This document shows, piece after piece, positions 1 to 55,277 of a DNA stretch of 64,000 nucleotides. Position numbers and translations under genes: made by a program. Under the pieces are notes generated by a model, which worked only from the letters and a program-made list of their open reading frames with translations, made no database searches and was not told the DNA's origin. The DNA lies in NCBI GenBank assembly GCA_964016885.1, contig OZ024743.1, positions 143,406,001 through 143,470,000 of the forward strand. Direction: 5' to 3'. The stretch is from Eledone cirrhosa. Taxonomy: Eukaryota. Positions within the stretch are counted from its first letter, which is position 1. Every line of letters begins with the position of its first letter.

Positions 1-3000
1 GCTTGGTGTTTGGTGTTTGGTGCTTGGTGCTTGGTGCTTGGTGTTTGGTGCTTGGTGTTTGGTGTTTGGTGCTTAGTGTTTGGTGCTTGGTGCTTAGTGT
101 TTGGTGCTAGGTGCTTGGTGTTTGGTGCTTGGTGCTTGGTGCCTGGTGCTTGGTGTTTGGTGTTTGGTGTTTGGTGCTTGGTGCTTGGTGTTTGGTGTTT
201 GCTGTTTGCTGTTTGGTGTTTGTTGTTTGGTGTTTGTTGTTTGGTGTTTGCTGTTTGGTGTTTGGTGTTTGCTTTTTTGGTGTTTGGTGTTTGCTGTATG
301 TTGTTTGCTGTTTGGTGTTTGGTGTTTGGTGTTTGGTGCTTGGTGCTTGGTGTTTGGTTCTTGGTGCTTGGTGTTTGGTGCCTGCTGCTTGGTGTTTGGT
401 GTTTGGAGTTTGGTGTTTGGTGCTTGGTGCTTGGTGTTTTGTGTTTCGTGTTTGGTTTTTGGTGCTTGGTGCTTGGTGCTTGGTCCTTGGTGTTTGGTGC
501 TGGGTGCTTTGTGTTTGGTGCTTGGTGCTTGGTGCTTGGTGTTTGGTGTTTGCTGCTTGGTGTTTAATGCTTGGTGCTTGGTGCTTGGTGTTTTGTGTTT
601 GGTGCTTGGTGCTTGGTGTTTGGTGCTTGGTGTTTGTACTTGGTGCTTGGTGCTTGGTGTTTGTTTCTTGGTTCTTGGTATTTGGTGTTTGGCATTTGGT
701 GTTTGGTGCTTGGTGCTTGGTGTTTGGTGCTTGGTGCTTGGTGTTTGGTGCCTGGTGCTTGGTGCTTGGTGCTTGGTGTTTGGTGTTTGGTGCTTGGTGC
801 TTGGTGCTTGGAGTTTGGTGTTTGGTGCTTGGTGCTTGGTGTTTTGTGTTTGGTGTTTGGTTTTTGGTGCTTGGTCCTTGGTGTTTGGTGCTGGGTGCTT
901 TGTGTTTGGTGCTTGGTGCTTGGTGTTTGGTGTTTGCTGCTTGGTGTTTGATGCTTGGTGCTCGGTGCTTGGTGTTTTGTGTTTGGTGCTTGGTTCTTGG
1001 TGTTTGGTGCTTGGTGCTTGGTGTTTGTACTTGGTGCTTGGTGCTTGGTGCTTGGTGTTTGTACTTGGTGCTTGGTGCTTGGTGTTTGGTTCTTGGTTCT
1101 TGGTGTTTGGTACTTGGTGCTTGGTACTTGGTGCTTGATGTTTGGTGTTTGGTGCTTGGTGTTTGGTGCTTGGTGCTTGGTGTTTGGTGCTTGGTGTTTG
1201 GTGTTTGGTGTTTGGTGTTTGGTGTCTGCTTTTTGGTGTTTAGTGTTTGCTGTATGGTGTTTGGTGTTTGCTGTTTGGTGTTTGGTCTTTGGTGCTTGGT
1301 GTTTGGTGCTTGGTGCTTGGTGTTTGGTGTCTGGTGCTTGGTGTTTGGTGTCTGGTGCTTGGTGCTTGGTGCTTGGTGTTTGGTGTTTGGTGTTTGGTGC
1401 TTGGTGTCTTGTGCTTGGTGTTTGGTGTTTGGTGCTTGGTGTTTGGTGTTTGGTGCATGGTGTTTGGTGTTTGGTGTTTGGTGCTTGGTGCTTGGTGTTT
1501 GTTGTTTGGTGTTTGGTGCTTGGTGTCTGGTGCTTGGTGTTTGGTGCTTGGTGTTTGGTGTTTGGTGTTTGGTGCTTGGTGCTTGGTGCTTGGTGCTTGG
1601 TGTTTGGTGTTTGGTGCTTGGTGCTTGGTGTTTGGTGCTTGGTGCTGGGTGGTTGGTGTTTGGTGCTTGGTGTTTGGTGCTGGGTGCTTGGTGCTGGGTG
1701 CTTGGTGTTTGGTGCTTGGTGCTTGGTCTTTGGTGCTTGGTGTTTGGTGTTTGGTGCTTGGTGCTTGGTGTTTGGTGCTTGGTGCTTGGTGTGTGGTGCT
1801 TGGTTCTTAGTGTTTGGTGCTAGGTGCTTGGTGTTTGGTGCTTGGTGCTTGGTGTTTGGTGCTTGGTGCTTGGTGTTTGGTGTTTGGTGTTTGGTGCTTG
1901 GTGGTTGGTGTTTGGTGTTTGCTGTTTGCTGTTTGGTGTTTGTTCTTTGGTGTTTGTTGTTTGGTGTTTGCTGTTTGGTGTTTGGTGTTTGCTTTTTGGT
2001 GTTTGGTGTTTGCTGTATGTTGTTTGCTGTTTGGTGTTTGGTGTTTGGTGTTTGGTGCTTGGTGCTTGGTGTTGGTGCTTGGTGCTTGGTGTTTGGTGTT
2101 TGCTGCTTGGTGCTTGGTGCTTGGTGTTTGGTGCTTGGTGCTTGGAGTTTGGTGCTTAGTGCTTGGTGTTTTGTGTTTCGTGTTTGGTTTTTGGTGCTTG
2201 GTGCTTGGTGCTTGGTCCTTAGTGTTTGGTGCTGGGTGCTTTGTGTTTGGTGCTTGGTGCTTGGTGCTTGGTGTTTGGTGTTTGCTGCTTGGTGTTTGAT
2301 GCTTGGTGCTTGGTGCTTGGTGTTTTGTGTTTGGTGCTTGGTGTTTGGTGCTTGGTGCTTGGTGCTTGGTGTTTGTACTTGGTGCTTGGTGCTTGGTGTT
2401 TGTTTCTTGGTGTTTGGTGTTTGGCGTTTGGTGTTTGGTGCTTGGTGCTTGGTGTTTGGTGCTTGGTGCTTGGTGTTTGGTGCCTGGTGCTTGGTGCTTG
2501 GTGTTTGGTGTTTGGTGCTTGGAGTTTGGTGTTTGGTGCTTGGTGCTTGGTGTTTTGTGTTTGGTGTTTGGTTTTTGGTGCTTGGTGCTTGGTGCTTGGT
2601 CCTTGGTGTTTGGTGCTGGGTGCTTTGTGTTTGGTGCTTGGTGCTTGGTGTTTGGTGTTTGCTGCTTGGTGTTTGATGCTTGGTGCTTGGTGCTTGGTGT
2701 TTTGTGTTTGGTGCTAGGTGCTTGGTGTTTGGTGCTTGGTGCTTGGTGCTTGGTGTTTGTACTTGGTGCTTGGTGTTTGGTTCTTGCTTCTTGGTGTTTG
2801 GTACTTGGTGCTTGGTGCTTGGTGCTTGATGTTTGGTGTTTGGTGCTTGGTGTTTGGTGCTTGGTGCTTGGTGTTAGGTGTTTGGTGCTTGGTGCTTGGT
2901 GTTTGGTGCTTGGTGTTTGGTGTTTGCTGTTTGGTGTTTGGTGTTTGGTGTTTGCTGTTTGGTGTCTGCTTTTTGGTGTTTAGTGTTTGCTGTATGGTGT

Positions 3001-6000
3001 TTGCTGTTTCGTGTTTGGTGTTTTCTGTTTGGTGTTTGGTGTTTGCTGTTTGGTGTTTGGTCTTTGGTGCTTGGTGTTTGGTGCTTGGTGCTTGATGTTT
3101 GGTGTTTGGTGCTTGGTGTTTGGTGCTTGGTGTTGGTGTTTGGTGTTTGGTGCTTGGTGCTTGGTGTTTGGTGTTTGGTGTTTGGTGCTTGGTGTCTGGT
3201 GCTTGGTGTTTGGTGTTTGGTGCTTGGTGTTTGGTGTTTGGTGCTTGGTGCTTGGTGTTTGGTGTTTGGTGCTTGGTGTTTGGTGTTTGGTGCTTGTTGC
3301 TTTGGTGCTTGGTGTTTGGTGCTTGGTGCTTGGTGTTTGGTGCTGGGTGCTTGGTGCTTGGTATTTGGTGTTTGGTGCTTGGTGCTTGGTGTTTGGTGTT
3401 TGGTGTTATATGCTTGGTGTTTGATGCTTGGTGCTTGGTTCTTGGTGTTTGGTGTTTGGTGCTTGGTGTTTGATGCTTGGTGCTTGGTGCTTGGTTCTTG
3501 GTGTTTGGTGCTTGGTGTTTGGTGCTTGGTGCTTGGTGTTTGGTGTTTGGTGCTTGCTGCTGGCTGCTTGGTGTTTGGTGCTTGGTGATTGGTGCTTGGT
3601 GTTTGGTGCTTGGTGTTTGGTGCTAGGTTCTTGGTGTTTGGTGCTTGGTGCTTGGTGTTTGTACTTGGTGCTTGGTGCTTGGTTCTTGGTGTTTGGTGCT
3701 TGGTGTTTGGTGCTTGGTGCTTGATGTTTGGTGCTTGGTGTTTGGTGCTTGGTGTTTGGTGCTTGGTGCTTGGTGCTTGGTGCTTGGTGTTTGGTGCTTG
3801 GTGTTAGGTATTTGGTGCTTGGTGCTTGGTGTTTGGTGTTTGGTGCTTCGTGTTTGGTGCTTGGTGCTTGGTGTTTGTTGCTTGGTGTTTGGTGCTTGGT
3901 ACTTGGTGCTTCGTGTTAGGTGTTTGGTGCTTGGTGCTTGGTGTTTGGTGCTTGGTGTTTGGTGTTTGGTGCTTGCTGCTGGCTGCTTGGTGTTTGGTGC
4001 TTGGTGTTTGGTGCTTGGTGTTTGGTGTTTGGTGCTAGGGGCTTGGTGCTTGGTCTTTGGTGCTTGGTGCATGGTGTTTGGTGTTTGGTGCTTGGTGCTG
4101 GGTGGTTGGTGTTTGGTGTTTGGTGCTGGGTGCTTGGTGTTTGGTGCTTGGTGCTTGGTCTTTGGTGCTTGGTGTTTGGTGTTTGGTGCTTGGTGCTTGG
4201 TGCTTGGTGCTTGGTGCTTAGTGTTTGGTGCTAGGTGCTTGGGGTTTGGTGTTTGGTGCTTGGTGCTTGGTGTTTGGTGCTTGGTGCTTGGTGTTTGGTG
4301 TTTGGTGATTGGTGCTTGGTGTTTGCTGTTTGCTGTTTGCTGTTTGGTGTTTGTTGTTTGGTGTTTGTTGTTTGGTGTTAGATGTTTGGTGTTTGATGTT
4401 TGCTGTTTGGTGTCTGCTTTTTGGTGTTTGGTGTTTGCTGTATGTTGTTTGCTGTTTGGTGTTTGGTGTTTGGTGTTTGGTGCTTGGTGCTTTGTGTTTG
4501 GTGCTTGGTGCTTGGTGTTTGGTGCCTGGTGCTTGGTGCTTGGTGTTTGGTGCTTGGAGTTTGGTGTTTGGTGCTTGGTGTTTTGTGTTTGGTGCTTGGT
4601 GCTTGGTGTTTGGTGCTTGGTGCTTGGTGCTTGGTGTTTGTACTTGGTGCTTGGTGCTTGGTGTTTGGTTCTTGGTGTTTGGTACTTGGTGCTTGGTCCT
4701 TGGTGTTTGGTGCTGGGTGCTTTGTGTTTGGTGCTTGGTGCTTGGTGTTTGGTGTTTGCTGCTTGGTGTTTGATGCTTGGTGCTTGGTGCTTGGTGTTTT
4801 GTGTTTGGTGCTGGGTGCTTTGTGTTTGGTGTTTGCTGCTTGGTGTTTAATGCTTGGTGCTTGGTGCTTGGTGTTTTGTGTTTGGTGCTTGGTGCTTGGT
4901 GTTTGGTGCTTGGTGTTTGTACTTGGTGCTTGGTGCTTGGTGTTTGTTTCTTGGTTCTTGGTGTTTGGTGTTTGGCGTTTGGTGTTTGGTGCTTGGTGCT
5001 TGGTGTTTGGTGCTTGGTGCTTGGTGTTTGGTGCCTGGTGCTTGGTGCTTGGTGCTTGGTATTTGGTGTTTGGTGCTTGGTGCTTGGTGCTTGGAGTTTG
5101 GTGTTTGGTGCTTGGTGCTTAGTGTTTTGTGTTTGGTGTTTGGTTTTTGGTGCTTGGTCCTTGGTGTTTGGTGCTGGGTGCTTTGTGTTTGGTGCTTGGT
5201 GCTTGGTGTTTGGTGTTTGCTGCTTGGTGTTTGATGCTTGGTGCTTGGTGCTTGGTGTTTTGTTTTTGGTGCTTGGTTCTTGGTGTTTGGTGCTTGGTGC
5301 TTGGTGTTTGTACTTGGTGCTTGGTGCTTGGTGTTTGGTTCTTGGTTCTTGGTGTTTGGTACTTGGTGCTTGGTACTTGGTGCTTGATGTTTGGTGTTTG
5401 GTGCTTGGTGTTTGGTGCTTGGTGCTTGGTGTTTGGTGCTTGGTGTTTGGTGTTTGGTGTCTGCTTTTTGGTGTTTAGTGTTTGCTGTATGGTGTTTGGT
5501 GTTTGCTGTTTGGTGTTTGGTCTTTGGTGCTTGGTGTTTGGTGCTTGGTGCTTGGTGTTTGGTGTCTGGTGCTTGGTGTTTGGTGTCTGGTGCTTGGTGC
5601 TTGGTGCTTGGTGTTTGGTGTTTGGTGTTTGGTGCTTGGTGTCTGGTGCTTGGTGTTTGGTGCTTGGTGCTTGGTGTTTGTTGTTTGGTGTTTGGTGCTT
5701 GGTGTCTGGTGCTTGGTGTTTGGTGCTTGGTGTTTGGTGTTTGGTGTTTGGTGCTTGGTGCTTGGTGCTTGGTGCTTGGTGTTTGGTGTTTGGTGCTTGG
5801 TGCTTGGTGTTTGGTGCTTGGTGCTGGGTGGTTGGTGTTTGGTGCTTGGTGTTTGGTGCTGGGTGCTTGGTGCTGGGTGCTTGGTGTTTGGTGCTTGGTG
5901 CTTGGTCTTTGGTGCTTGGTGTTTGGTGTTTGGTGCTTGGTGCTTGGTGTTTGGTGCTTGGTGCCTGGTGTGTGGTGCTTGGTGCTTAGTGTTTGGTGCT

Positions 6001-9000
6001 AGGTGCTTGGTGTTTGGTGCTTGGTGCTTGGTGTTTGGTGCTTGGTGCTTGGTGTTTGGTGTTTGGTGTTTGGTGCTTGGTGGTTGGTGTTTGGTGTTTG
6101 CTGTTTGCTGTTTGGTGTTTGTTCTTTGGTGTTTGTTGTTTGGTGTTTGCTGTTTGGTGTTTGGTGTTTGCTTTTTGGTGTTTGGTGTTTGCTGTATGTT
6201 GTTTGCTGTTTGGTGTTTGGTGTTTGGTGTTTGGTGCTTGGTGCTTGGTGTTGGTGCTTGGTGCTTGGTGTTTGGTGCCTGGTGCTTGGTGCTTGGTGCT
6301 TGGTGTTTGGTGCTTGGTGCTTGGAGTTTGGTGCTTGGTGCTTGGTGTTTTGTGTTTCGTGTTTGGTTTTTGGTGCTTGGTGCTTGGTGCTTGGTCCTTA
6401 GTGTTTGGTGCTGGGTGCTTTGTGTTTGGTGCTTGGTGCTTGGTGCTTGGTGTTTGGTGTTTGCTGCTTGGTGTTTGATGCTTGGTGCTTGGTGCTTGGT
6501 GTTTTGTGTTTGGTGCTTGGTGTTTGGTGCTTGGTGCTTGGTGCTTGGTGTTTGTACTTGGTGCTTGGTGCTTGGTGTTTGTTTCTTGGTGTTTGGTGTT
6601 TGGCGTTTGGTGTTTGGTGCTTGGTGCTTGGTGTTTGGTGCTTGGTGCTTGGTGTTTGGTGCCTGGTGCTTGGTGCTTGGTGTTTGGTGTTTGGTGCTTG
6701 GAGTTTGGTGTTTGGTGCTTGGTGCTTGCTGTTTTGTGTTTGGTGTTTGGTTTTTGGTGCTTGGTGCTTGGTGCTTGGTCCTTGGTGTTTGGTGCTGGGT
6801 GCTTTGTGTTTGGTGCTTGGTGCTTGGTGTTTGGTGTTTGCTGCTTGGTGTTTGATGCTTGGTGCTTGGTGCTTGGTGTTTTGTGTTTGGTGCTAGGTGC
6901 TTGGTGTTTGGTGCTTGGTGCTTGGTGCTTGGTGTTTGTACTTGGTGCTTGGTGTTTGGTTCTTCGTTCTTGTTGTTTGGTACTTGGTACTTGGTGCTTG
7001 GTGCTTGGTGCTTGATGTTTGGTGTTTGGTGCTTGGTGTTTGGTGCTTGGTGTTAGGTGTTTGGTGATTGGTGCTTGGTGTTTGGTGCTTGGTGTTTGGT
7101 GTTTGCTGTTTGGTGTTTGGTGTTTGGTGTTTGCTGTTTGGTGTCTGCTTTTTGGTGTTTAGTGTTTGCTGTATGGTGTTTGCTGTTTCGTGTTTGGTGT
7201 TTGCTGTTTGGTGTTTGGTGTTTGCTGTTTGGTGTTTGGTCTTTGGTGCTTGGTGTTTGGTGCTTGGTGCTTGATGTTTGGTGTTTGGTGCTTGGTGTTT
7301 GGTGCTTGGTGCTTGGTGTTTGGTGCTTGGTGCTTGGTGTTTGGTGTTTGGTGCTTGGTGTCTGGTGCTTGGTGTTTGGTGTTTGGTGCTTGGTGTTTGG
7401 TGTTTGGTGTTTGGTGTTTGGTGCTTGGTGTTTGGTGTTTGGTGCTTGTTGCTTTGGTGCTTGGTGTTTGGTGCTTGGTGCTTGGTGTTTGGTGCTGGGT
7501 GCTTGGTGCTTGGTATTTGGTGTTTGGTGCTTGGTGCTTGGTGTTTGGTGTTTGGTGTTATATGCTTGGTGTTTGATGCTTGGTGCTTGGTTCTTGGTGT
7601 TTGGTGTTTGGTGCTTGGTGTTTGATGCTTGGTGCTTGGTGCTTGGTTCTTGGTGTTTGGTGCTTGGTGTTTGGTGCTTGGTGCTTGGTGTTTGGTGTTT
7701 GGTGCTTGCTGCTGGCTGCTTGGTGTTTGGTGCTTGGTGATTGGTGCTTGGTGTTTGGTGCTTGGTGTTTGGTGCTAGGTGCTTGGTGTTTGGTGCTTGG
7801 TGCTTGGTGTTTGTACTTGGTGCTTGGTGCTTGGTTCTTGGTGTTTGGTGCTTGGTGTTTGGTGCTTGGTGCTTGATGTTTGGTGCTTGGTGTTTGGTGC
7901 TTGGTGTTTGGTGCTTGGTGCTTGGTGCTTGGTGCTTGGTGTTTGGTGCTTGGTGTTAGGTATTTGGTGCTTGGTGCTTGGTGTTTGGTGTTTGCTGTTT
8001 GCTGTTTGCTGTTTGGTGTTTGTTGTTTGGTGTTTGTTGTTTGGTGTTTGCTGTTTGATGTTTGGTGTTTGATGTTTGCTGTTTGGTGTCTGCTTTTTGG
8101 TGTTTGGTGTTTGCTGTATGTTGTTTGCTGTTTGGTGTTTGGTGTTTGGTGTTTGGTGCTTGGTGCTTTGTGTTTGGTGCTTGGTGCTTGGTGTTTGGTG
8201 CCTGGTGCTTGGTGCTTGGTGTTTGGTGCTTGGAGTTTGGTGTTTGGTGCTTGGTGTTTTGTGTTTGGTGCTTGGTGCTTGGTGTTTGGTGCTTGGTGCT
8301 TGGTGCTTGGTGTTTGTACTTGGTGCTTGGTGCTTGGTGTTTGGTTCTTGGTGTTTGGTACTTGGTGCTTGGTCCTTGGTGTTTGGTGCTGGGTGCTTTG
8401 TGTTTGGTGCTTGGTGCTTGGTGTTTGGTGTTTGCTGCTTGGTGTTTGATGCTTGGTGCTTGGTGCTTGGTGTTTTGTGTTTGGTGCTGGGTGATTTGTG
8501 TTTGGTGTTTGCTGCTTGGTGTTTAATGCTTGGTGCTTGGTGCTTGGTGTTTTGTGTTTGGTGCTTGGTGTTTGGTGCTTGGTGTTTGTACTTGGTGCTT
8601 GGTGCTTGGTGTTTGTTTCTTGGTTCTTGGTGTTTGGTGTTTGGCGTTTGGTGTTTGGTGCTTGGTGCTTGGTGTTTGGTGCTTGGTGCTTGGTGTTTGG
8701 TGCCTGGTGCTTGGTGCTTGGTGCCTGGTGCTTGGTGCTTGGTGCTTGGTGTTTGGTGTTTGGTGCTTGGTGCTTGGTGCTTGGTGCTTGGAGTTTGGTG
8801 TTTGGTGCTTGGTGCTTGGTGTTTTGTGTTTGGTGTTTGGTTTTTGGTGCTTGGTCCTTGGTGTTTGGTGCTGGGTGCTTTGTGTTTGGTGCTTGGTGCT
8901 TGGTGTTTGGTGTTTGCCATCTTGGTGTTTGATGCTTGGTGCTTGGTGCTTGGTGTTTTGTGTTTGGTGCTTGGTTCTTGGTGTTTGGTGCTTGGTGCTT

Positions 9001-12000
9001 GGTGTTTGTACTTGGTGCTTGGTGCTTGGTGCTTGGTGTTTGTACTTGGTGCTTGGTGCTTGGTGTTTGGTTCTTGGTTCTTGGTGTTTGGTACTTGGTG
9101 CTTGGTACTTGGTGCTTGATGTTTGGTGTTTGGTGCTTGGTGTTTGGTGCTTGGTGTTTGGTGCTTGGTGTTTGGTGTTTGGTGTTTGGTGTTTGGTGTC
9201 TGCTTTTTGGTGTTTAGTGTTTGCTGTATGGTGTTTGGTGTTTGCTGTTTGGTGTTTGGTCTTTGGTGCTTGGTGTTTGGTGCTTGGTGCTTGGTGTTTG
9301 GTGTCTGGTGCTTGGTGTTTGGTGTCTGGTGCTTGGTGCTTGGTGCTTGGTGTTTGGTGTTTGGTGTTTGGTGCTTGGTGTCTGGTGCTTGGTGTTTGGT
9401 GTTTGGTGCTTGGTGCTTGGTGTTTGTTGTTTGGTGTTTGGTGCTTGGTGTCTGGTGCTTGGTGTTTGGTGCTTGGTGTTTGGTGTTTGGTGTTTGGTGC
9501 TTGGTGCTTGGTGCTTGGTGCTTGGTGTTTGGTGTTTGGTGCTTGGTGCTTGGTGTTTGGTGTTTGGTGCTTGGTGCTGGGTAGTTGGTGTTTGGTGCTT
9601 GGTGTTTGGTGCTGGGTGCTTGGTGCTGGGTGCTTGGTGTTTGGTGCTTGGTGCTTGGTCTTTGGTGCTTGGTGTTTGGTGTTTGGTGCTTGGTGCTTGG
9701 TGTTTGGTGCTTGGTGCTTGGTGTGTGGTGCTTGGTACTTAGTGTTTGGTGCTAGGTGCTTGGTGTTTGGTGCTTGGTGCTTGGTGTTTGGTGCTTGGTG
9801 CTTGGTGTTTGGTGTTTGGTGTTTGGTGCTTGGTGGTTGGTGTTTGGTGTTTGCTGTTTGCTGTTTGGTGTTTGTTCTTTGGTGTTTGTTGTTTGGTGTT
9901 TGCTGTTTGGTGTTTGGTGTTTGCTTTTTGGTGTTTGGTGTTTGCTGTATGTTGTTTGCTGTTTGGTGTTTGGTGTTTGGTGTTTGGTGCTTGGTGCTTG
10001 GTGCCTGGTGCTTGGTGCTTGGTGCTTGGTGTTTGGTGCTTGGAGTTTGGTGCTTGGTGCTTGGTGTTTTGTGTTTCGTGTTTGGTTTTTGGTGCTTGGT
10101 GCTTGGTGCTTGGTCCTTAGTGTTTGGTGCTGGGTGCTTTGTGTTTGGTGCTTGGTGCTTGGTGCTTGGTGTTTGGTGTTTGCTGCTTGGTGTTTGATGC
10201 TTGGTGCTTGGTGCTTGGTGTTTGGTGTTTGCTGCTTGGTGCTTGGTGTTTGGTGCTGGGTGCTTGGTGCTTGGTATTTGGTGTTTGGTGCTTGGTGCTT
10301 GGTGTTTGGTGTTTGGTGTTATATGCTTGGTGTTTGATGCTTGGTGCTTGGTTCTTGGTGTTTGGTGTTTGGTGCTTGGTGTTTGATGCTTGGTGCTTGG
10401 TGCTTGGTTCTTGGTGTTTGGTGCTTGGTGTTTGGTGCTTGGTGCTTGGTGTTTGGTGTTTGGTGCTTGCTGCTGGCTGCTTGGTGTTTGGTGCTTGGTG
10501 ATTGGTGCTTGGTGTTTGGTGCTTGGTGTTTGGTGCTAGGTGCTTGGTGTTTGGTGCTTGGTGCTTGGTGTTTGTACTTGGTGCTTGGTGCTTGGTTCTT
10601 GGTGTTTGGTGCTTGGTGTTTGGTGCTTGGTGCTTGATGTTTGGTGCTTGGTGTTTGGTGCTTGGTGTTTGGTGCTTGGTGCTTGGTGCTTGGTGCTTGG
10701 TGTTTGGTGCTTGGTGTTAGGTATTTGGTGCTTGGTGCTTGGTGTTTGGTGTTTGCTGTTTGCTGTTTGCTGTTTGGTGTTTGTTGTTTGGTGTTTGTTG
10801 TTTGGTGTTTGCTGTTTGATGTTTGGTGTTTGATGTTTGCTGTTTGGTGTCTGCTTTTTGGTGTTTGGTGTTTGCTGTATGTTGTTTGCTGTTTGGTGTT
10901 TGGTGTTTGGTGTTTGGTGCTTGGTGCTTTGTGTTTGGTGCTTGGTGCTTGGTGTTTGGTGCCTGGTGCTTGGTGCTTGGTGTTTGGTGCTTGGAGTTTG
11001 GTGTTTGGTGCTTGGTGTTTTGTGTTTGGTGCTTGGTGCTTGGTGTTTGGTGCTTGGTGCTTGGTGCTTGGTGTTTGTACTTGGTGCTTGGTGCTTGGTG
11101 TTTGGTTCTTGGTGTTTGGTACTTGGTGCTTGGTCCTTGGTGTTTGGTGCTGGGTGCTTTGTGTTTGGTGCTTGGTGCTTGGTGTTTGGTGTTTGCTGCT
11201 TGGTGTTTGATGCTTGGTGCTTGGTGCTTGGTGTTTTGTGTTTGGTGCTGGGTGATTTGTGTTTGGTGTTTGCTGCTTGGTGTTTAATGCTAGGTGCTTG
11301 GTGCTTGGTGTTTTGTGTTTGGTGCTTGGTGTTTGGTGCTTGGTGTTTGTACTTGGTGCTTGGTGCTTGGTGTTTGTTTCTTGGTTCTTGGTGTTTGGTG
11401 TTTGGCGTTTGGTGTTTGGTGCTTGGTGCTTGGTGTTTGGTGCTTGGTGTTTGGTGCCTGGTGCTTGGTGCTTGGTGCCTGGTGCTTGGTGCTTGGTGCT
11501 TGGTGTTTGGTGTTTGGTGCTTGGTGCTTGGTGCTTGGTGCTTGGAGTTTGGTGTTTGGTGCTTGGTGCTTGGTGTTTTGTGTTTGGTGTTTGGTTTTTG
11601 GTGCTTGGTCCTTGGTGTTTGGTGCTGGGTGCTTTGTGTTTGGTGCTTGGTGCTTGGTGTTTGGTGTTTGCTGCTTGGTGTTTGATGCTTGGTGCTTGGT
11701 GCTTGGTGTTTTGTGTTTGGTGCTTGGTTCTTGGTGTTTGGTGCTTGGTGCTTGGTGTTTGTACTTGGTGCTTGGTGCTTGGTGCTTGGTGTTTGTACTT
11801 GGTGCTTGGTGCTTGGTGTTTGGTTCTTGGTTCTTGGTGTTTGGTACTTGGTGCTTGGTACTTGGTGCTTGATGTTTGGTGTTTGGTGCTTGGTGTTTGG
11901 TGCTTGGTGTTTGGTGCTTGGTGTTTGGTGTTTGGTGTTTGGTGTTTGGTGTCTGCTTTTTGGTGTTTAGTGTTTGCTGTATGGTGTTTGGTGTTTGCTG

Positions 12001-15000
12001 TTTGGTGTTTGGTCTTTGGTGCTTGGTGTTTGGTGCTTGGTGCTTGGTGTTTGGTGTCTGGTGCTTGGTGTTTGGTGTCTGGTGCTTGGTGCTTGGTGCT
12101 TGGTGTTTGGTGTTTGGTGTTTGGTGCTTGGTGTCTGGTGCTTGGTGTTTGGTGTTTGGTGCTTGGTGCTTGGTGTTTGTTGTTTGGTGTTTGGTGCTTG
12201 GTGTCTGGTGCTTGGTGTTTGGTGCTTGGTGTTTGGTGTTTGGTGTTTGGTGCTTGGTGCTTGGTGCTTGGTGCTTGGTGTTTGGTGTTTGGTGCTTGGT
12301 GCTTGGTGTTTGGTGCTTGGTGCTGGGTAGTTGGTGTTTGGTGCTTGGTGTTTGGTGCTGGGTGCTTGGTGCTGGGTGCTTGGTGTTTGGTGCTTGGTGC
12401 TTGGTCTTTGGTGCTTGGTGTTTGGTGTTTGGTGCTTGGTGCTTGGTGTTTGGTGCTTGGTGCTTGGTGTGTGGTGCTTGGTACTTAGTGTTTGGTGCTA
12501 GGTGCTTGGTGTTTGGTGCTTGGTGCTTGGTGTTTGGTGCTTGGTGCTTGGTGTTTGGTGTTTGGTGTTTGGTGCTTGGTGGTTGGTGTTTGGTGTTTGC
12601 TGTTTGCTGTTTGGTGTTTGTTCTTTGGTGTTTGTTGTTTGGTGTTTGCTGTTTGGTGTTTGGTGTTTGCTTTTTGGTGTTTGGTGTTTGCTGTATGTTG
12701 TTTGCTGTTTGGTGTTTGGTGTTTGGTGTTTGGTGCTTGGTGCTTGGTGTTGGTGCTTGGTGTTTGGTGCCTGGTGCTTGGTGCTTGGTGCTTGGTGTTT
12801 GGTGCTTGGAGTTTGGTGCTTGGTGCTTGGTGTTTTGTGTTTCGTGTTTGGTTTTTGGTGCTTGGTGCTTGGTGCTTGGTCCTTAGTGTTTGGTGCTGGG
12901 TGCTTTGTGTTTGGTGCTTGGTGCTTGGTGCTTGGTGTTTGATGTTTGCTGCTTGGTGCTTGGTGTTTTGTGTTTGGTGCTTGGTGTTTGGTGCTTGGTG
13001 CTTGGTGCTTGGTGTTTGTACTTGGTGCTTGGTGCTTGGTGTTTGTTTCTTGGTGTTTGGTGTTTGGCGTTTGGTGTTTGGTGCTTGGTGCTTGGTGTTT
13101 GGTGCTTGGTGCTTGGTGTTTGGTGCCTGGTGCTTGGTGCTTGGTGTTTGGTGTTTGGTGCTTGGAGTTTGGTGTTTGGTGCTTGGTGCTTGGTGTTTTG
13201 TGTTTGGTGTTTGGTTTTTGGTGCTTGGTGCTTGGTGCTTGGTCCTTGGTGTTTGGTGCTGGGTGCTTTGTGTTTGGTGCTTGGTGCTTGGTGTTTGGTG
13301 TTTGCTGCTTGGTGTTTGATGCTTGGTGCTTGGTGCTTGGTGTTTTGTGTTTGGTGCTAGGTGCTTGGTGTTTGGTGCTTGGTGCTTGGTGCTTGGTGTT
13401 TGTACTTGGTGCTTGGTGTTTGGTTCTTGCTTCTTGGTGTTTGGTACTTGGTGCTTGGTGCTTGGTGCTTGATGTTTGGTGTTTGGTGCTTGGTGTTTGG
13501 TGCTTGGTGCTTGGTGTTAGGTGTTTGGTGCTTGGTGCTTGGTGTTTGGTGCTTGGTGTTTGGTGTTTGCTGTTTGGTGTTTGGTGTTTGGTGTTTGCTG
13601 TTTGGTGTCTGCTTTTTGGTGTTTAGTGTTTGCTGTATGGTGTTTGCTGTTTCGTGTTTGGTGTTTGCTGTTTGGTGTTTGGTGTTTGCTGTTTGGTGTT
13701 TGGTCTTTGGTGCTTGGTGTTTGGTGCTTGGTGCTTGATGTTTGGTGTTTGGTGCTTGGTGTTTGGTGCTTGGTGCTTGGTGTTTGGTGCTTGGTGCTTG
13801 GTGTTTGGTGTTTGGTGTTTGGTGCTTGGTGTCTGGTGCTTGGTGTTTGGTGTTTGGTGCTTGGTGTTTGGTGTTTGGTGTTTGGTGCTTGGTGTTTGGT
13901 GTTTGGTGCTTGTTGCTTTGGTGCTTGGTGTTTGGTGCTTGGTGCTTGGTGCTGGGTGCTTGGTGCTTGGTATTTGGTGTTTGGTGCTTGGTGCTTGGTG
14001 TTTGGTGTTTGGTGTTATATGCTTGGTGTTTGATGCTTGGTGCTTGGTTCTTGGTGTTTGGTGTTTGGTGCTTGGTGTTTGATGCTTGGTGCTTGGTGCT
14101 TGGTTCTTGGTGTTTGGTGCTTGGTGTTTGGTGCTTGGTGCTTGGTGTTTGGTGTTTGGTGCTTGCTGCTGGCTGCTTGGTGTTTGGTGCTTGGTGATTG
14201 GTGCTTGGTGTTTGGTGCTTGGTGTTTGGTGCTAGGTGCTTGGTGTTTGGTGCTTGGTGCTTGGTGTTTGTACTTGGTGCTTGGTGCTTGGTTCTTGGTG
14301 TTTGGTGCTTGGTGTTTGGTGCTTGGTGCTTGATGTTTGGTGCTTGGTGTTTGGTGCTTGGTGTTTGGTGCTTGGTGCTTGGTGCTTGGTGCTTGGTGTT
14401 TGGTGCTTGGTGTTAGGTATTTGGTGCTTGGTGCTTGGTGTTTGGTGTTTGGTGCTTCGTGTTTGGTGCTTGGTGCTTGGTGTTTGGTGCTTGGTGTTTG
14501 GTGCTTGGTACTTGGTGCTTGGTGTTAGGTGTTTGGTGCTTGGTGCTTGGTGTTTGGTGCTTGGTGTTTGGTGTTTGGTGCTTGCTGCTGGCTGCTTGGT
14601 GTTTGGTGCTTGGTGTTTGGTGCTTGGTGTTTGGTGCTTGGTGTTTGGTGTTTGGTGCTAGGGGCTTGGTGCTTGGTCTTTGGTGCTTGGTGCATGGTGT
14701 TTGGTGTTTGGTGCTTGGTGCTGGGTGGTTGGTGTTTGGTGTTTGGTGCTGGGTGCTTGGTGTTTGGTGCTTGGTGCTTGGTCTTTGGTGCTTGGTGTTT
14801 GGTGTTTGGTGCTTGGTGCTTGGTGTTTGGTGCTTGGTGCTTGGTGCTTAGTGTTTGGTGCTAGGTGCTTGGGGTTTGGTGTTTGGTGCTTGGTGCTTGG
14901 TGTTTGGTTCTTGGTGCTTGGTGTTTGGTGTTTGGTGCTTGGTGCTTGGTGTTTGCTGTTTGCTGTTTGCTGTTTGGTGTTTGTTGTTTGGTGTTTGTTG

Positions 15001-16346
15001 TTTGGTGTTTGCTGTTTGATGTTTGGTGTTTGATGTTTGCTGTTTGGTGTCTGCTTTTTGGTGTTTGGTGTTTGCTGTACGTTGTTTGCTGTTTGGTGTT
15101 TGGTGTTTGGTGTTTGGTGCTTGGTGCTTTGTGTTTGGTGCTTGGTGCTTGGTGTTTGGTGCCTGGTGCTTGGTGCTTGGTGTTTGGTGCTTGGAGTTTG
15201 GTGTTTGGTGCTTGGTGTTTTGTGTTTGGTGCTTGGTGCTTGGTGTTTGGTGCTTGGTGCTTGGTGCTTGGTGTTTCTACTTGGTGCTTGGTGCTTGGTG
15301 TTTGGTTCTTGGTGTTTGGTACTTGGTGCTTGGTCCTTGGTGTTTGGTGCTGGGTGCTTTGTGTTTGGTGCTTGGTGCTTGGTGTTTGGTGTTTGCTGCT
15401 TGGTGTTTGATGCTTGGTGCTTGGTGCTTGGTGTTTTGTGTTTGGTGCTTGGTGCTTGGTGTTTGGTGCTTGGTGCTTGGTGCTTGGTGTTTGTACTTGG
15501 TGCTTGGTGCTTGGTGTTTGTTTCTTGGTGTTTGGTACTTGGTGCTTGGTGCTTGGTGTTTGGTGTTTGGTGCTTGGTGTTTGGTGCTTGGTGCTTGGTG
15601 TTAGGTGTTTGGTGCTTGGTGCTTGGTGCTTGGTGCTTGGTGTTTGGTGCTTGGTTTTTGGAGCTTAGTTTCTGGTGCTTGGTGTTTGGTGCTTGGTGTT
15701 TGGTGCTTGGTGTTTGGTGCTTGGTGCTTGGTGTTAGGTGTTTGGTGCTTGGTGTTTGATCCTTGGTGCTTGGTGTTTGGTGTTTGGTGCTTGGTGTTTG
15801 GTGTTTGGTGCTTGGTGCTTGCTGCTTGGTGTTTGGTGTTTTGGTGTTTTGTGCTAGGTGCTTGGTGCTTGGTACTTGGTGATTGGTGCTTGGTGCTTCG
15901 TGTTTTGTGTTTGGTGCTTGGTGTTTGGTGCTTGGTGCTTGGTGCTTGGTGTTTGTACTTGGAGCTTGGTGCTTGGTGTTTGGTGCTTGGTGCTTGGTGT
16001 TTGGTGTTTGGTGCTTGGTGCTTGGTGTTTGGTGCTTGGTGTTTAGTGTTTGGTGCTTGGTGTTTGGTGTTTGGTGTTTGGTGCTTGGTGCTTGGTGCTT
16101 GGTGTTTGGTGCTGAGTGTTTGGTGTTTGGTGCTTGGTGCTTGGTGCTTGGCGTTTGGTGCTTGGAGCTTGGTGTTTGGTGCTTGGTGCTTGGTGTTTTG
16201 TGTTTGGTGCTTGGTGTTTGGTGTTTGGTGCTTGGTGTTTGGTGTTTGGTGCTTGGTGTTTGGTGCTTGTTGCTAGGTGTTTGGTGCTTGGTGCCTGGTC
16301 TTTGGTGTTTGGTGTTTGGTGCTTGGTGTATGGTGCTTGGTGCTTG
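1..16346. repeat. Heptameric satellite (TTTGGTG/CTTGGTG)n with multi-kb higher-order repeats
   Basis: Continuous 7-bp periodicity; + strand almost devoid of A; rare variants (e.g. GTTAGGTATT at ~3806, 7958, 10719, 14415) recur at 4152, 2761 and 3696 bp. Extends beyond the window start. Confidence 0.98.
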
Positions 16347-17216: not shown

Positions 17217-17246
<30 letters not shown>

Positions 17247-17252
<6 letters not shown>

Positions 17253-17805
17253 AGATAAGCAGAACAAGTAAAATTCAACCAATTTTTCAAAATAAATCAA
17301 AATTAATTTAAAATTAAAATTAATTAAAATTAAAAAATATAATATAAATATTTACCTATTCAGATGGCCCTTACTGTACAGTTTCACTTTGCAAAACATT
17401 AGATATCCTATGGATATTAATGGAAAAACAAAGATCATCAGAGAAGCATTTTCCTTTCCTAGGGTTAAAAACCCAGGAACGATAAAATATATGACCTCTT
17501 CGCCAACTAACAAGGCCTGAAAGATCGTAAAAGTGAACCGTATGTACGCCGGACTGAAGTGAAGGCGGGAAACCATAGACTAGTTGTCTATAGTTGCTAC
17601 TAAAAAAATAGCAGCTAAATAGAACAACAGATTTGTTCTCTACATAACGGAGTATAATGAATAAAGTTAATATGTCTAAGGGTACTAGGTACCCCCAGAA
17701 ATACATAGGTTGTCTATGATTCAAGGTGGTTCGATGGTATTAATTTGATATACCAGAACTTAATATCAAGATAAGCAGAACAAGTAAAATTCAACCAATT
17801 TTTCA
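17247..17805 (-). mobile_element. Non-coding 516-bp unit plus 43-bp terminal direct repeat; retrozyme or Penelope-like pLTR
   Basis: Identical ATATCAAGATAAGCAGAACAAGTAAAATTCAACCAATTTTTCA at 17247-17289 and 17763-17805; (TA)n on both sides; contains a hammerhead motif. Confidence 0.7.
17364..17449 (-). ncRNA. Type I hammerhead ribozyme
   Basis: Minus strand: AUGCUUCU-CUGAUGA-stem II (CUUUG/CAAAG extended by a CAUUA-AUAUCC/GGAUAU-UAAUG hairpin)-GAAA-palindromic stem III (ACUGUACAGU)-GUA-AGGGCCAU; stem I 7/8 paired. Confidence 0.75.
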
Positions 17806-18039
17806 TATATATATATATATATATAAATCTACATATATATATATATAAATATACATACATACATATATACATTTTTTTTTTTTAGTATATGTTGGTTGTA
17901 TACCAATACCTCAGTATGCAGATTGGAGCACTCGACGAAGTGCGCAGGTTGGTTTGGTTTCTCCGGAGTAATGTAAAATACAATAAAATAAATAAGTCAA
18001 ATGTTTAAAATTTGGCTTCGTTTATTACTGCTTCGTTTA

Positions 18040-18323
18040 TTATAAAGCTCAGTGTCAGATTTTCAAAGTTGTAGGATTGAATATGAGAGAATTGGTTTTT
18101 GCCTATGGACAGTTATATATAGTTTGTTCACGAGTGCGAACACGTAGAAATGTTCTTATACTATGTACGAACGGTAAAACGAAGAATCTGGTGTATCTTG
18201 AATGTTTTTGACAGTTTTTTCTCGGCTCATAGTTCAAACCAGACAACACATATAATACAGTTTCTCTTCTATCGTTCTTCTCTTATCATCTGTTGCCCAG
18301 GCGAAGCCGGATATCTCAGGTAG
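18040..18323 (+). mobile_element. Helitron helicase C-terminus with 3' terminus
   Basis: KAQCQIFKVVGLNMRELVFAYGQLYIVCSRV (KSQGQ...HGQLYVA.SRV motif), then a GCGAAGC-capped hairpin at ~18296-18311 and GTAG-T (decayed CTAG end). Confidence 0.75.
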
Positions 18324-18523
18324 TCTTAACTAAATAGAAATTTAATTTGAAAAAAATAAGAAAAATTTTGACCTTATTTATCAATTCTATGAAAAGTTTG
18401 GACACTCTGTATTTTAAAAACTTGAGCTTGAAACATAAATTCAATAAAAACACATTAAATATCAAACTTCTAACACGTTGTTTATATAATATATGAGTTG
18501 TATTTTCTCCTAAAAATGTTATC

Positions 18524-18579
18524 GGCCGCGTGGCCTAATGGATAATGCGTCTAACTTCGAATCAGAAGTCTTGTGGTCG
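18524..18579 (+). pseudogene. tRNA-Arg(TCG) pseudogene, T-arm deleted
   Basis: GGCCGCGTGGCCTAATGGATAATGCGTCTAACTTCGAATCAGAAG then jumps to the acceptor 3' strand GTGGTCG. Confidence 0.85.
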
Positions 18580-18865
18580 TAAACTTTCAATCTTTATTTT
18601 CTTCCTATCACACATTGTTATTACAAACATTTTTTATATTTTTTAACTATATGGAAACAATATTTTTTTTTTTAAGAATGAAGAATTTGTATCTTGTTTA
18701 TCAATTCAATGGCTCGAAGACGAATCGAAAGAAGAGATGGAGATTCTATAGTGAGGTCTCGGTTCTGGTCGGAACACCGTCATGTCTTTCATCTAACACC
18801 CGAACAAAGCATGGCGTCTGACCCTCTACCGATACTGCCAATCTACCGCAAAATAATGAAGGCTG

Positions 18866-18936: not shown

Positions 18937-19067
18937 TTCCATGCAAACAATTAGAAACTACCACAATATATTATATAAAAAGTTGTCAAATGTGTGATAT
19001 TTCGTGTGTTTTTAATCAGTGTATTTACCATTTTAAAAAAATAGCGACACTTAACCCCATAACCTTT

Positions 19068-19488
19068 TGAAAAATCCTGTCCCGCCACGTCTCTGCGTTG
19101 ACACACGCTTAAGAGTAACGGTGATGATGAACCATTTCCTAGAGGTCACTATTCTTGGAGGCAATCATCAACGAGAAAATGCATTTATTCGCAAGATTCC
19201 TCTCATCTCTTTATCTACCTAGCTGCCATGCACATTCTCAAGACTTCACTTCCCTGTTAGAACCAGTTTTGCTATGACCATAAATAAAGCTCATAGTCAG
19301 TGTCAAGGTGGTAGGAATGAATATGAGAGAATCAATGTTTACCCATGGACAGTTATATGTAGGTACTTCACGAATGGGACCGCATAGAAATCTTCATATA
19401 CTATGTACGAACAGTACAACAAACAATCTGGTGTATCTGGAATGTTTTTTCTCAGCTCTTACTTTAAACCAGACAACACATATAATCA
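19068..19488 (+). mobile_element. Helitron PIF1-like helicase C-terminal remnant
   Basis: PPRLCVDTRL...EVTILGG...ENAFIRKIPLI...SRLHFPVRTSFAMTINKAHSQ / VVGMNMRESMFTHGQLYVGTSRM...NNLVY, with a stop and a frameshift. Confidence 0.9.
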
Positions 19489-19615
19489 GGGACTGAGTTA
19501 CGGCGTTAAGCGTCATTCTTTTTTTTAAATGGTAAATACATTGACTAAAAACATGAAATATCACACATTTCACAACTTTTTATATATTGTGGTAGTTTCT
19601 CTTGTTTGTATAAAT

Positions 19616-21656: not shown

Positions 21657-21765
21657 CCACTTTTTTTCCAGGCAATGCAAGGATATTATATTAATATTAA
21701 AAATATTTATCAACAAATAAGTTAAATAAATAATAATGAATAGGAAGAAGTGCAGATAGGAAAAG

Positions 21766-21838
21766 CAATCAGGGTGGGAATCGAACCCACGACCTTCGGA
21801 TTGCTAGTCCGCTGCTCTACCGACTGAGCTACCTGACC
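21766..21838 (-). tRNA. tRNA-like cloverleaf, anticodon AGC, lacking the alanine G3:U70 pair (may be element-derived)
   Basis: GGTCAGG-TA-GCTC/GAGC D arm, CGGA-CTAGCAA-TCCG, GTGGG-TTCGATT-CCCAC, CCTGATT-G, then CTTTT. Confidence 0.55.
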
Positions 21839-24122: not shown

Positions 24123-24659
24123 CAGTGAAGTCTAACCACATCTCTTCACAATATAAATATACACAGTAAAACAAGAGGTTGCCTTTATATACTTCACAAC
24201 TGCAAACAAGTATCCTTATCCTCCTGTCCACATTGTGAGCTATAGTTAAACGCTATTTATATATTTTAAAAACCCATTTGAATTCAATAGCCAGCCTAAT
24301 TTGGTGTTATGTGCATCCGTCGATTACATAATTAATTAAGAAATATTTCTGCCCAACACAGTATGTTAGAAAATCTATGATACACTTAATATAGTTATAA
24401 CTACAATTTATAAACATTGCAATGAAACTTGAAACAGATGTGAACGAACGCTGCAGAGTGAGATCAAATTTGAAACCTTATGATTGCGAAGCAAACTTTT
24501 TAACCATTCGGCCATGTACACAAATGCAGACGCGATTAAATTTGGATTGACAAACAAGAAAAAAATGCCTCATTTTTTCGAGCTTTCTTTAGTGTTGCAG
24601 TGTAAAAATGATAGTTGTTACCATTTTTAATAATTAAAAAAGAAAGAAAATACTTGCTG

Positions 24660-24732
24660 CGACCACGACGAGACTCGAACTCGCAATCTTCTGATTCGAA
24701 GTCAGACGCCTTATCCATTAGGCCACGCGGCC
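24660..24732 (-). tRNA. tRNA-Arg(TCG)
   Basis: GGCCGCGTGGCCTAATGGATAAGGCGTCTGACTTCGAATCAGAAGATTGCGAGTTCGAGTCTCGTCGTGGTCG: all stems pair, A/B boxes intact, T-runs downstream. Confidence 0.93.
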
Positions 24733-29880: not shown

Positions 29881-30084
29881 GCAGGTAAGATCATTGCTAA
29901 GATTGTGAGTTTCGATCCCATTTTCAGAGACTGGATCACTGGATTGTTCGTTTGGTCTGTTGGACGTATTATTATTCAGATAGAAGACATTAAAGAGCAT
30001 CCTGATCGAACTTTTATTAACGCTTAGTTAAAAGAGTGATGCATACGACTTTCTTCAGAGCCTCCATGACAGTTGGAGTTAGTT

Positions 30085-30751
30085 AATTTTCTATATAGAT
30101 AATAAACACAACCACAAGTATATGGTCCGAATGTGGAAGAACCGAACTCCCACTGTCATCGCCTCCATCTCTCTCGCCTCCCCATCTCTCACTATTATGA
30201 ACAAATGGGGTCGCACGTGCTGACCACCCCACAGCCCCGGCGGACAGAATGGAGAAAGCGTTTCCCCGGAGCATGGTAAGGGAGATGCGCTGGAAGAGCC
30301 ATTCCATCTCGCGAGGCTCACACCTGCGGCTGGCCAGCTCATAGCCTATGGTGGTGAGTAGGGAGGTATCCCTGGTGCCAAGGACACCAAAAGTCTCCAC
30401 TGCGAAAGGCACGACCGCAAACTTGCCAGAGAGCGACCGGTACTTGGAGAGTTTTCCCCCCTCAGCCCGACGTGCAGAAGAACCCGGGTTAGTTGCAGAG
30501 GGACGTCAGCAGAGGGAGAAGGAGGAAGGACGTCTACTAGGCTAAGTCCCAGCCGGCTCCATGTCTCGCAGGCGGCCGCACGTTCCCGATCACAAAGGCT
30601 TCCATTGTTTTGGAGAACCCTGCTGACGAGGACGCGGCATGAGGTTACCGACGGAAGAAACGCCGGCAAGCCAGCGAGCTCGGAGGCCAAGGCCACCATA
30701 TCTAACAGGTAAAGTGGCCCGTTGACAGCAGCCTTTGTCTAGGCCAATGTT
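30085..30751 (-). mobile_element. CRE-clade (RLE) non-LTR retrotransposon, 3' segment with internal deletion
   Basis: QRATLPVRYGGLGLR; FAVVPFAVETFGVLG...LFQRISLTMLRGNAFSIL. Confidence 0.8.
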
Positions 30752-31906
30752 TCGACCTTTAGGCAAGCGCCTATCCCAAGCGTGCCGAAGGACGCCGCAT
30801 CCCCTGTTCTCGTGTGTCTTCAACCTCCATCCCTGAGACCAGTGCCAAGCGTTTACGTGACCGCGTAAACGCCAAACTAATCATGGGTGATGTCTCGGCC
30901 GCAGTCAGAGTGGTTGCCTCAGTGGACACTGCCCTCCAACCCGCCGAGGAGGTCCTGGCTGCCCTGCGACTCAAGCACCCTGAGCAATTCACTAACCTTA
31001 GACCCATACCCCACCCGATCCCAACTTTCTCCTTGTGGCTTCCGACGCAGACATCATGTCTGCCAACAAGTCCTTCCCAGCTAGCACCAGGTCCATTACA
31101 CCTGCACTGGGTGTGGAGCTCAGTCCGGTGCAACTGGGTGTCGGCGTGTCCGGTGGCTGTGAGGGGGCCGCAACCAGGAAGTTCTTCAACAGCTTCCCAC
31201 CGGAACCGATATCCTGGGACTCCAGGCACCTCATTGTCAAGCTTGACATGAGGAATGCCTGTAACTGCCTACGCCGTGACCATCTGTTCGATGCCTGCCT
31301 CAGCTGAGCCCCCTCTCCCTATCCGCTGGTCTAACTGTCATATGGAGCCCCGAGCATGCTCCTTGCTGCTGATACGGTCATACCTTCAGCCACTGGGGTC
31401 TAACAGGATGACCCTTTGGTCCTCCTCCTGTTTGCTTGGTATAGACCACATTGCTCGGAGTATCACGGCCCCTCTCAACATTTTATACCTGGATGATGCT
31501 ACGTTAGGCGGGCCTGTAGAGACTGTCTGCCATGACCTTAAATCGGTGGTTCCTGCCCTGGCGGGAATCGGCCTCCAGGTCAACTCGTCCAAGTCGGATG
31601 TTGAGAGCTTTGCAGCCTCCGTCTCGGACGTGCGGTCCATTCTCCACCAGATACAGGTGACCCCCAAAGAGGATGTCCTCATCCTCGGGTCACCGATCCA
31701 CCATCAGGTCCAGGCTGCAGAAACTCCAGACCCTCACGAGCCGACTGGGCTTGATTGGCGGCCACCTAGCCCTCTTCCTGTTGAGGAACTGCTTCGCCAT
31801 GCCGAAGCTCTATACTTTTCGCAGCGCTCCGTACTACAGCCACGCATCTCTCCTTGTTGACCCCGACACTTGTATCCGAGCGGCAGCTGAGGAGATATGC
31901 AACGTC
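30752..31906 (+). mobile_element. CRE-clade reverse transcriptase segment, inverted relative to its 3' part, decayed
   Basis: KLIMGDVSAAVR, PVQLGVGVSGGCE, VKLDMRNA, ATGV*QDDP, LYLDD, ALFLLRNCFAMPKL; frameshifts and stops. Confidence 0.82.
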
Positions 31907-54660: not shown

Positions 54661-55277
54661 TAATATAATAATAATGAACTTATTGTGTACAGTGCTCAGA
54701 TGCACTACAACTCATCAAAGGTGCATGTATAGAACATAGAATAATATACAAATGTCAAGGAAGTGAATAGTGTATGAGTCATGATATACATGTGTGCGTG
54801 TGTATGGAGGGGGAATTTTAGGTGTAGTATTGGCGAATCTCAGGAAGCATGGAGGTTTTAAAGGATGCAGTGTCTCGACAGCTAATAACTGATGCAGGGA
54901 ATTTGTTCCATGCTTCAGCAACTCTGGGCGTGAAAAAATGTTTCCGAAAGTCATGGGAGCTGTACTGTTTTCTGACTTTGTTGGCATGCCCATGCGTGTT
55001 AGACACATGGAATCAAAAAGGTACTCAGGGCTGTTGTTGGCAAGATGGTTAATAATTTTGTGGGTGTTTACCAAGTCAGTTGCCAGATGTCGGAGCTTCA
55101 ATGTATCCATGCCCAGGGAAGTAAGGCATTCAGAGTATGGTAGATGCCTGATGGAGGGTATTCGCTTGGTTGCACGTCTCTGAACAGTTTCCAGGCGGTC
55201 AATGTTCTGAGCAAGATAGGGATTCCAGACTGGTAATGCAAATTCTAAGAGTGGCCACACCATAGCTATATACAGCT
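54661..55277 (-). mobile_element. CR1-clade LINE 3' fragment inserted in a TTAA MITE (54574-~55470)
   Basis: LYIAMVWPLLEFALPVWNPY...LETVQRRATKRI...HFFTPRVAEAWN; short AT-rich repeat tail. Confidence 0.82.

Follow-up and report, generated by a model that had tools for sequence, protein, structure and literature searches.

The closest described systems are the metazoan non-LTR retrozymes, for which monomers of 51-972 bp have been reported, and the Penelope-like elements (PLEs). Retrozymes were proposed to be passengers of PLEs in PMC7229834, and the proposal is supported in bioRxiv 10.64898/2026.07.22.740005 (statements on these and all other cited papers refer to the available parts of their texts). 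One of the hammerheads in PMC7229834, HHR_Amex2 of the axolotl, begins helix II with a U.U mismatch; as a monomer it cleaves to 22%, and dimers cleave much better. PLE copies have a tail of 30-40 bp that is found 'often only at one end' (PMC8557442) or 'optionally' at one inverted pLTR (PMC3846280). The PLE protein, a predicted dimer, cuts and extends both strands, and the tail is delimited by two internal sites at which reverse transcription begins (PMC11167929). Plant LTR retrozymes have a type III hammerhead, LTRs, PBS/PPT and 4-bp target duplications (bioRxiv 10.64898/2026.07.22.740005). Neither the reinsertion of animal retrozymes nor the origin of inverted PLE copies tailed at one end has been settled in this literature (PMC7229834; PMC8557442; PMC11167929).

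The unit studied here is located at positions 17247-17805 of the window, by which we mean the whole stretch of 64,000 nucleotides of Eledone cirrhosa DNA that was analysed. The initial annotation proposed a retrozyme or PLE-type element, and this was supported, as were a multi-copy family, a conserved hammerhead core with covarying helix II and (TA)n targets. With a probability of about 0.72, the unit is a non-LTR retrozyme that is likely mobilised by the reverse transcriptase (RT)/GIY-YIG protein of a PLE and whose copies lie in (TA)n and end at two fixed sites. As in metazoan non-LTR retrozymes, the unit is non-coding with a GC content of 31% (0.31), has one type I hammerhead per lap and shares its genome with PLEs, and its head-to-tail monomers are inside the size range given above (PMC7229834; bioRxiv 10.64898/2026.07.22.740005). 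Unlike the described non-LTR retrozymes, the copies are mostly dispersed (TA)n insertions of one to two laps; their 3' ends are fixed at two sites, and head-to-head inversion is common. The words 'inverted' and 'microsatellite' are absent from the main text of PMC7229834, parts 1-3 of 5 of bioRxiv 10.64898/2026.07.22.740005 contain no description of insertion ends, and the words hammerhead and retrozyme do not occur in the available part of PMC13282606.

With PLEs that have a pLTR and a tail (PMC11167929, PMC8557442, PMC3846280) the families share 5' truncation, partial tandems and head-to-head inversion, and also a tail at one end, microsatellite targets and ends downstream of the hammerhead cut; the unit differs from PLEs in having no ORF. 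Its tail of about 105-110 nt is about three times the 30-40 nt published for PLEs, and the combination of one tailed and one untailed end is near-obligate, compared with 'often' or 'optionally' in the PLE papers. Like plant LTR retrozymes the unit is non-autonomous and hammerhead-bearing, but its hammerhead is of type I and there is no fixed terminal repeat. The kind of element, a non-LTR retrozyme with a PLE insertion signature, is known and is an ordinary kind of selfish repeat; what is added here is the length of the tail and the near-obligate way in which the ends are paired. Neither a description of the families nor counts of tail pairing were found in the literature, taken without subscription papers, Repbase/Dfam and supplements, the last of which may bear on the counts.

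Layout of the window copy and its families

The features of the window copy are as follows (monomer positions are numbered from the predicted cut).

17220..17250, no strand: left (TA)n target tract
17247..17805, minus strand: whole insertion, 559 nt or 1.08 laps of the 516-nt monomer, with its 5' truncation at monomer position 83 and its 3' end at the S (short) site
17247..17251, minus strand: S 3' end, monomer position about 125, putative first start site of reverse transcription
17247..17289, no strand: first copy of the 43-bp repeat, monomer positions 83-125
17262..17361, minus strand: predicted long AU-rich hairpin, monomer 11-110, between cut site and S site, shorter in family B
17365..17448, minus strand: type I hammerhead, predicted cut 17372/17371 in GUA/A
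17448-17442 and 17371-17365, minus strand: strands of helix I
17441-17435 (CUGAUGA) and 17385-17382 (GAAA), minus strand: hammerhead core
17386..17434, minus strand: helix II, long (49 nt), first pair U.U
17373..17382, minus strand: helix III palindrome ACUGUACAGU
17653..17762, minus strand: tail between the S and L ends, monomer 126-235, internal in the window copy
17759-17729, 17718-17704 and 17703-17671, minus strand: predicted hairpins of the tail, the first of which is common to families B and C
17653..17661, minus strand: L (long) 3' end site at monomer about 227-235, where other copies end, putative second start site
17763..17805, no strand: second copy of the 43-bp repeat, monomer positions 83-125 of the previous lap
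17805..17825, no strand: right (TA)n tract

The exact 43-bp direct repeat with its offset of 516 bp and the (TA)n on both flanks were confirmed as first described, the initial ATAT of the repeat blending into the left (TA)n. The interpretation of the 43 bp as a terminal redundancy was not borne out. A fixed terminal repeat of this length was ruled out by the 136 arms of family A, which span 29-1224 nt, and the constant features are instead the two 3' ends. Given that the 5' ends are found all round the monomer and that the arms vary in length, the 43-bp overlap is the point where one cDNA happened to stop. Direct or inverted duplications in the flanks showed no excess (3/134 compared to 2.45 in controls) and, flank duplications being at control level, the inverted GTAGATTTAT in the flanks of the window copy was taken as chance.

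The unit is a single member of a dispersed family, A, which is non-coding and has a 516-nt monomer; its sister families, B (485 nt) and C (491 nt), number hundreds of copies. At least 107 matches were obtained for the unit in its own 3.0-Gb genome (DNA search, 40 scored of 2301 candidates), which bears out the expectation of a multi-copy family, and full-length matches were 90-100% identical. An exact 22-mer of the 3' core gave 103 matches for family A (0 for the control pattern), and the core patterns of B and C gave 659 (control 2) and 527 (control 0) exact matches, respectively. Family B was found through a diverged copy beside locus L006 and can be aligned to A over the whole monomer. Family C was found through a hammerhead beside locus L036; it is similar to A and B around the S site and the first tail hairpin (p = 0.002), with no other significant match outside this region.

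The insertions examined are samples and not a census: 93 distinct A insertions (overlapping loci were removed, from 113 to 98, and then 5 segmental duplicates were dropped), 41 B insertions, all on contig C1 (9 overlapping or duplicate loci dropped of 50), and 26 insertions from the C pattern search (4 overlapping loci dropped of 30). Searches with tail-motif patterns having other spacer lengths gave a further 26 loci, all of which matched A, B or C. Head-to-tail copies with at least one lap made up 56/136 arms in A and 27/52 in B. The unit was ruled out as coding, since a 111-aa ATG frame of the window copy reaches 100 aa in only 3/52 laps of A and in 0/39 laps of B.

Two 3' ends and their pairing in inverted copies

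The 3' ends fall at two sites, each entering (TA)n. The S site is 125 nt from the predicted cut in A, 92 in B and 81 in C, and the L site is at 227-235 in A, 193-198 in B and 192-195 in C, the exact end base being blurred by TA microhomology. Among the one-way copies, 39 ended at S, 6 at L and 2 elsewhere in the 93 distinct A insertions, and 26 at S, 2 at L and 1 elsewhere in the 41 distinct B insertions, which gives a total of 65 S, 8 L and 3 other. Of these 76 copies, nearly all enter TA at the 3' end, and in 50 the 5' end is flanked by TA as well, in agreement with the preference for TA repeats suggested earlier. Together with 5' truncation, partial tandems and head-to-head inversion, two fixed 3' ends downstream of a hammerhead in a microsatellite target constitute a Penelope-like insertion signature.

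For head-to-head copies in which both ends were canonical, one end was S and the other L in 40/40 cases in A and 9/9 in B, four of these pairs being scored through arms of only 11-17 nt. If the ends were independent at 50:50, the probability of 49/49 S+L pairs would be 1.8e-15. In family C the corresponding figure was 12/13, with a true S+S exception at L214. The inverted pairs of autonomous PLEs in the genome gave S+L in 4/4 (PLE-B) and 3/3 (PLE-A) cases; six of these were chosen as nearby opposite-strand matches and one (L140) was met in a fetched locus, their ends being disregarded in the choice. Altogether, S+L was observed in 68/69 scored inverted insertions (A, B, C and PLE). Two unscored copies, L022 and L192, may be S+S, and counting them as exceptions gives 68/71 (P about 3e-17 for independent choice). 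Inverted copies with one non-canonical end were left unscored (6 in A, 3 in B and several in C). The inversion junctions had overlaps of 0-6 nt in 37/45 cases. The S+L pairing is thus near-obligate, and it likely records enzyme priming on both DNA strands.

The tail is predicted to fold into three hairpins (z = -2.6 and -2.8) that were retained in alignment folding, with a two-sided change in 2/35 pairs, and these hairpins may be a protein-binding element. The families provide natural products that are short, number in the hundreds and are in part near-identical, with a tail that is long and easily scored.

The hammerhead and the template of reverse transcription

The minus-strand core CUGAUGA...GAAA...GUA, the position of the predicted cut, the U.U first pair of helix II and the palindromic helix III were all confirmed. 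The hammerhead is of type I with an open helix I, occurs once per unit, and has helices I-III paired. In 184 copies located by flanking sequence, CUGAUGA was intact in 169 and GAAA..UA in 179, of which only the 5' core is an unbiased test of conservation, since the 3' core belonged to the search patterns. Helix III was ACUGUACAGU in 112 copies and ACUGAUCAGU in 64, both palindromes; the first is typical of A and the second of B, and family C has the palindrome ACCGCGGU. The first pair of helix II was U.U in 117 copies and G-C in 59, corresponding to A and B, respectively. The U.U mismatch has a precedent in HHR_Amex2 (PMC7229834). This hammerhead also has a short helix III, but it differs from the present one, in which helix II is 49 nt and the sister family B has a G-C first pair.

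A hand-drawn structure had 93.5% of cells paired (40 of 115 distinct sequences) compared to 37-44% in slid controls. Compensatory changes were seen in distal helix II, and two-sided changes at five pairs, a count that was attained by 199/500 shuffles. The covariation mostly sets the subfamilies apart and therefore reflects few events. Conservation of the core and covariation of helix II, on which the initial reading had been made dependent, were thus both found, the latter with few two-sided pairs. The suggested search with Rfam hammerhead models came out negative, no hammerhead being found at the gathering score or at E<=10; the output at both settings comprised only microsatellite-driven miRNA matches and other weak ones. 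The long helix II is a likely reason. The helix III self-duplex would have 10 bp at a predicted -13.4 kcal/mol, and the circular folds of A and B had z-scores of -5.4 and -6.9, respectively, relative to 40 shuffles. The predicted MFE structures of both families differ from the catalytic fold.

The 5' ends were distributed all round the monomer, with arms of 29-2186 nt, and the cut site was crossed in register by 119/136 A arms and 48/52 B arms in a sample selected for the ribozyme. An enrichment of 5' ends at the cut site, which would be a sign of linear cleaved templates, was not found (5/188 arms within 4 nt compared to about 3 expected). Given that the arms cross the cut in register and that 5' ends are not enriched there, the template was either a circle or an uncut multimer. 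A cluster of 5' ends at monomer positions 10-20 probably results from AT-rich microhomology or sampling.

In family A the arms of one insertion differed by 1.9% and the laps by 2.0%, compared to about 4.2% between loci. Letters private to a locus and repeated in every lap numbered 23, in 15/90 loci, and 12 of them were present across both arms; 239 private letters occurred in one lap only. The likeness of arms and laps and the private letters favour one template that was read repeatedly, although gene conversion or homogeneous source arrays could also produce such likeness. As far as can be judged from their sequences, the copies fit reverse transcription around a circle.

Proposed mechanism, Penelope-like elements and neighbouring repeats

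No ORF with RT and GIY-YIG was found in the unit, which is therefore not an autonomous PLE, and none of the adjacent PLE ORFs anticipated by the initial annotation was linked to the window unit itself. A non-LTR retrozyme is expected to resemble the terminal repeat of a PLE of its own genome; here no long similarity was found between the unit and the PLE copies or the 3' regions of PLE fragments compared, which sampled in depth two of the many PLE families behind 62743 first-look candidates. A pair of B hammerheads spaced 2.8 kb apart was considered as a clue to a partner and proved to be a local duplication.

In PLE-A, S is at about 134 and L at about 320, which gives a tail of about 185 nt, and the ends are in (TA)n; in PLE-B, S is at about 37, L at about 125 and the tail is about 88 nt. 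In the PLE-A protein (P0001), RT motifs are accompanied by a Cys-rich linker and, at the C-terminus, an endonuclease region, with look-alikes of RVT_1, HTH_animal and GIY-YIG (Atlas), and a Pfam scan of the PLE ORF gave no match. The protein may be of the Neptune or Nematis type, a label taken from the linker as described in PMC8557442 and not from a tree. The hammerhead core of PLE-A reads CCGAUGA and has a very long helix II. PLE-B (L252-L290) has a 3' region of about 1 kb and open frames of up to 741 aa, and its hammerhead-like core is CAGAAGA, not CUGANGA.

Over 80 nt the likeness of the S site to PLE-A had a p value of about 0.1. The 30 nt before S resembled PLE-A more than five other families (p = 0.002-0.004, post hoc, 18 comparisons), with PLE-B next (p = 0.007-0.04). 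At L086/L114 (L086:2383-4703), a 164-nt S arm of family A continues upstream into 122 nt of the PLE-A ORF and then inverts, after which a 5'-truncated PLE-A extends as far as its L end; (TA)n flanks the whole insertion on either side. This chimera obeys the S+L rule and fits a template switch within one event; a deletion that fused neighbours is a possible alternative. When one-way A and B copies without TA at the 5' junction were compared with the PLE protein by tblastn, a match was obtained in L086 only. PLE-A is hence a candidate helper, as a lead only.

According to the proposed mechanism, multi-lap transcripts would self-cleave, probably through a dimeric helix III, and the cleaved RNA would likely be ligated by the host to a 516-nt circle. 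The PLE protein would bind the structured tail and cut both strands of a (TA)n tract, and the two freed 3' ends would both serve as reverse-transcription primers on the same RNA, with one starting at S and the other at L, so that each site would be used once. Each cDNA would pass the ribozyme junction and extend to a variable degree, and the two would be joined head to head at overlaps of 0-6 nt. Extension of a single cDNA would give a one-way copy, usually S-ended, as in the window. A more specific version, which we put forward tentatively and with the odds somewhat against it, is that a PLE protein dimer holds one small circular RNA by its 105-110-nt tail, each subunit priming at one tail edge from one of the two (TA)n strands and the circle being read both ways, that S+L is the footprint of this complex, and that PLE-A is the helper. 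If true, this would give one explanation for the PLE tail, inverted pLTRs and the spread of retrozymes. For the existing in vitro PLE assay, the families lead to a sharp prediction: on a single RNA, reverse transcription should begin at one site from one strand of a given target and at a different site from the other strand. Against such coupled priming, the use of start sites was equal between the strands in vitro (PMC11167929).

The same PLE-driven mechanism could act on an uncut linear multimer transcribed from tandem arrays, with no circle and with the hammerhead idle in insertion. Long arrays are indeed present, with at least three laps of B at a contig end (L241), about 4.6 + 2.2 laps in L190 and, in family C, at least six laps over at least 8 kb in L243 (G000:C1:176444019-176452291), which may serve as a source of linear multimers. 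A PLE used mainly uncut RNA in vitro, where anole PLE hammerhead mutants inserted normally (PMC11167929), and the lack of 5'-end enrichment at the cut site is as expected from this template, and equally so from a circle. However, the private letters in every lap fit better with one monomer being re-read, the core and the helix III palindrome have been kept in three diverged families, and retrozyme circles have been demonstrated in other animals (PMC7229834). We consider the linear template unlikely, while still giving it some weight.

Quite improbable, in our estimate, is that the inverted arm arose by fold-back or self-priming of one cDNA or on an antisense template, with the one-end tail produced by endonuclease resolution. 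For inverted PLE copies, self-priming has been suggested before (PMC3846280), as has resolution by an endonuclease for the tail (PMC8557442), and this reading would also account for the likeness of the two arms. However, the two arms end at unrelated monomer positions, the L arm lies wholly inside the tail in L079, L153, L161 and L177, a sequence that the S arm need not hold, and the in vitro start sites of the anole PLE match the genomic tail ends (PMC11167929). We regard it as hardly credible that the unit arose by duplication at a single locus, or is a satellite that was propagated as DNA, and that its hammerhead-like motif is there by chance or as a vestige. The missing Rfam match and the few loci that are segmental duplicates would agree with it, but the copies are dispersed, are flanked by (TA)n and have 5' ends that vary and 3' ends that are fixed, and the core is conserved with compensatory changes. 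The possibility raised at the outset that the 43-bp repeat is a single-locus duplication is contradicted by this dispersed multi-copy family.

Several other repeats were observed near the unit and its relatives. Window 1-16346 is a 16-kb satellite with strong strand skew, in which a 7-bp motif with the consensus GCTTGGT is repeated about 2339 times at 84% matches; it ends 900 bp from the hammerhead unit. Directly to the right of the unit, 17868-18043 is a tail fragment of another, very high-copy hammerhead family and matches the flanks of L016, L017 and L070. The flanks of L001-L144 contain about ten other type I hammerhead families with distinct helix III palindromes, which include ATATATAT, ACTAGT, ATGCGCAT, ACGCGT, ACAATTGT, ACGATCGT and ACCATGGT. 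Several of these families form inverted short and long pairs or tandem arrays (151 nt in L103 and 310 nt in L108), and several of their tails open with an ACTC...GAGT stem. The flanks of L004, L009, L061 and L088 have a roughly 230-bp internally palindromic element, also in (TA)n. In the window, a direct repeat of 83-91% identity about 1240 bp apart (18063-18256 / 19303-19486) and a 57-bp inverted repeat around 433 bp (19007-19063 / 19497-19553) are likely further mobile elements. Fragments at 30083-31860, 40757-41807, 54715-55386 and 59396-60055 resemble what we take to be non-LTR retrotransposon ORFs. Two tRNA genes, Ala-AGC (21765-21838) and Arg-TCG (24659-24732), were identified with ARAGORN, and a truncated tRNA-Arg-like copy was seen by eye at 18523-18580.
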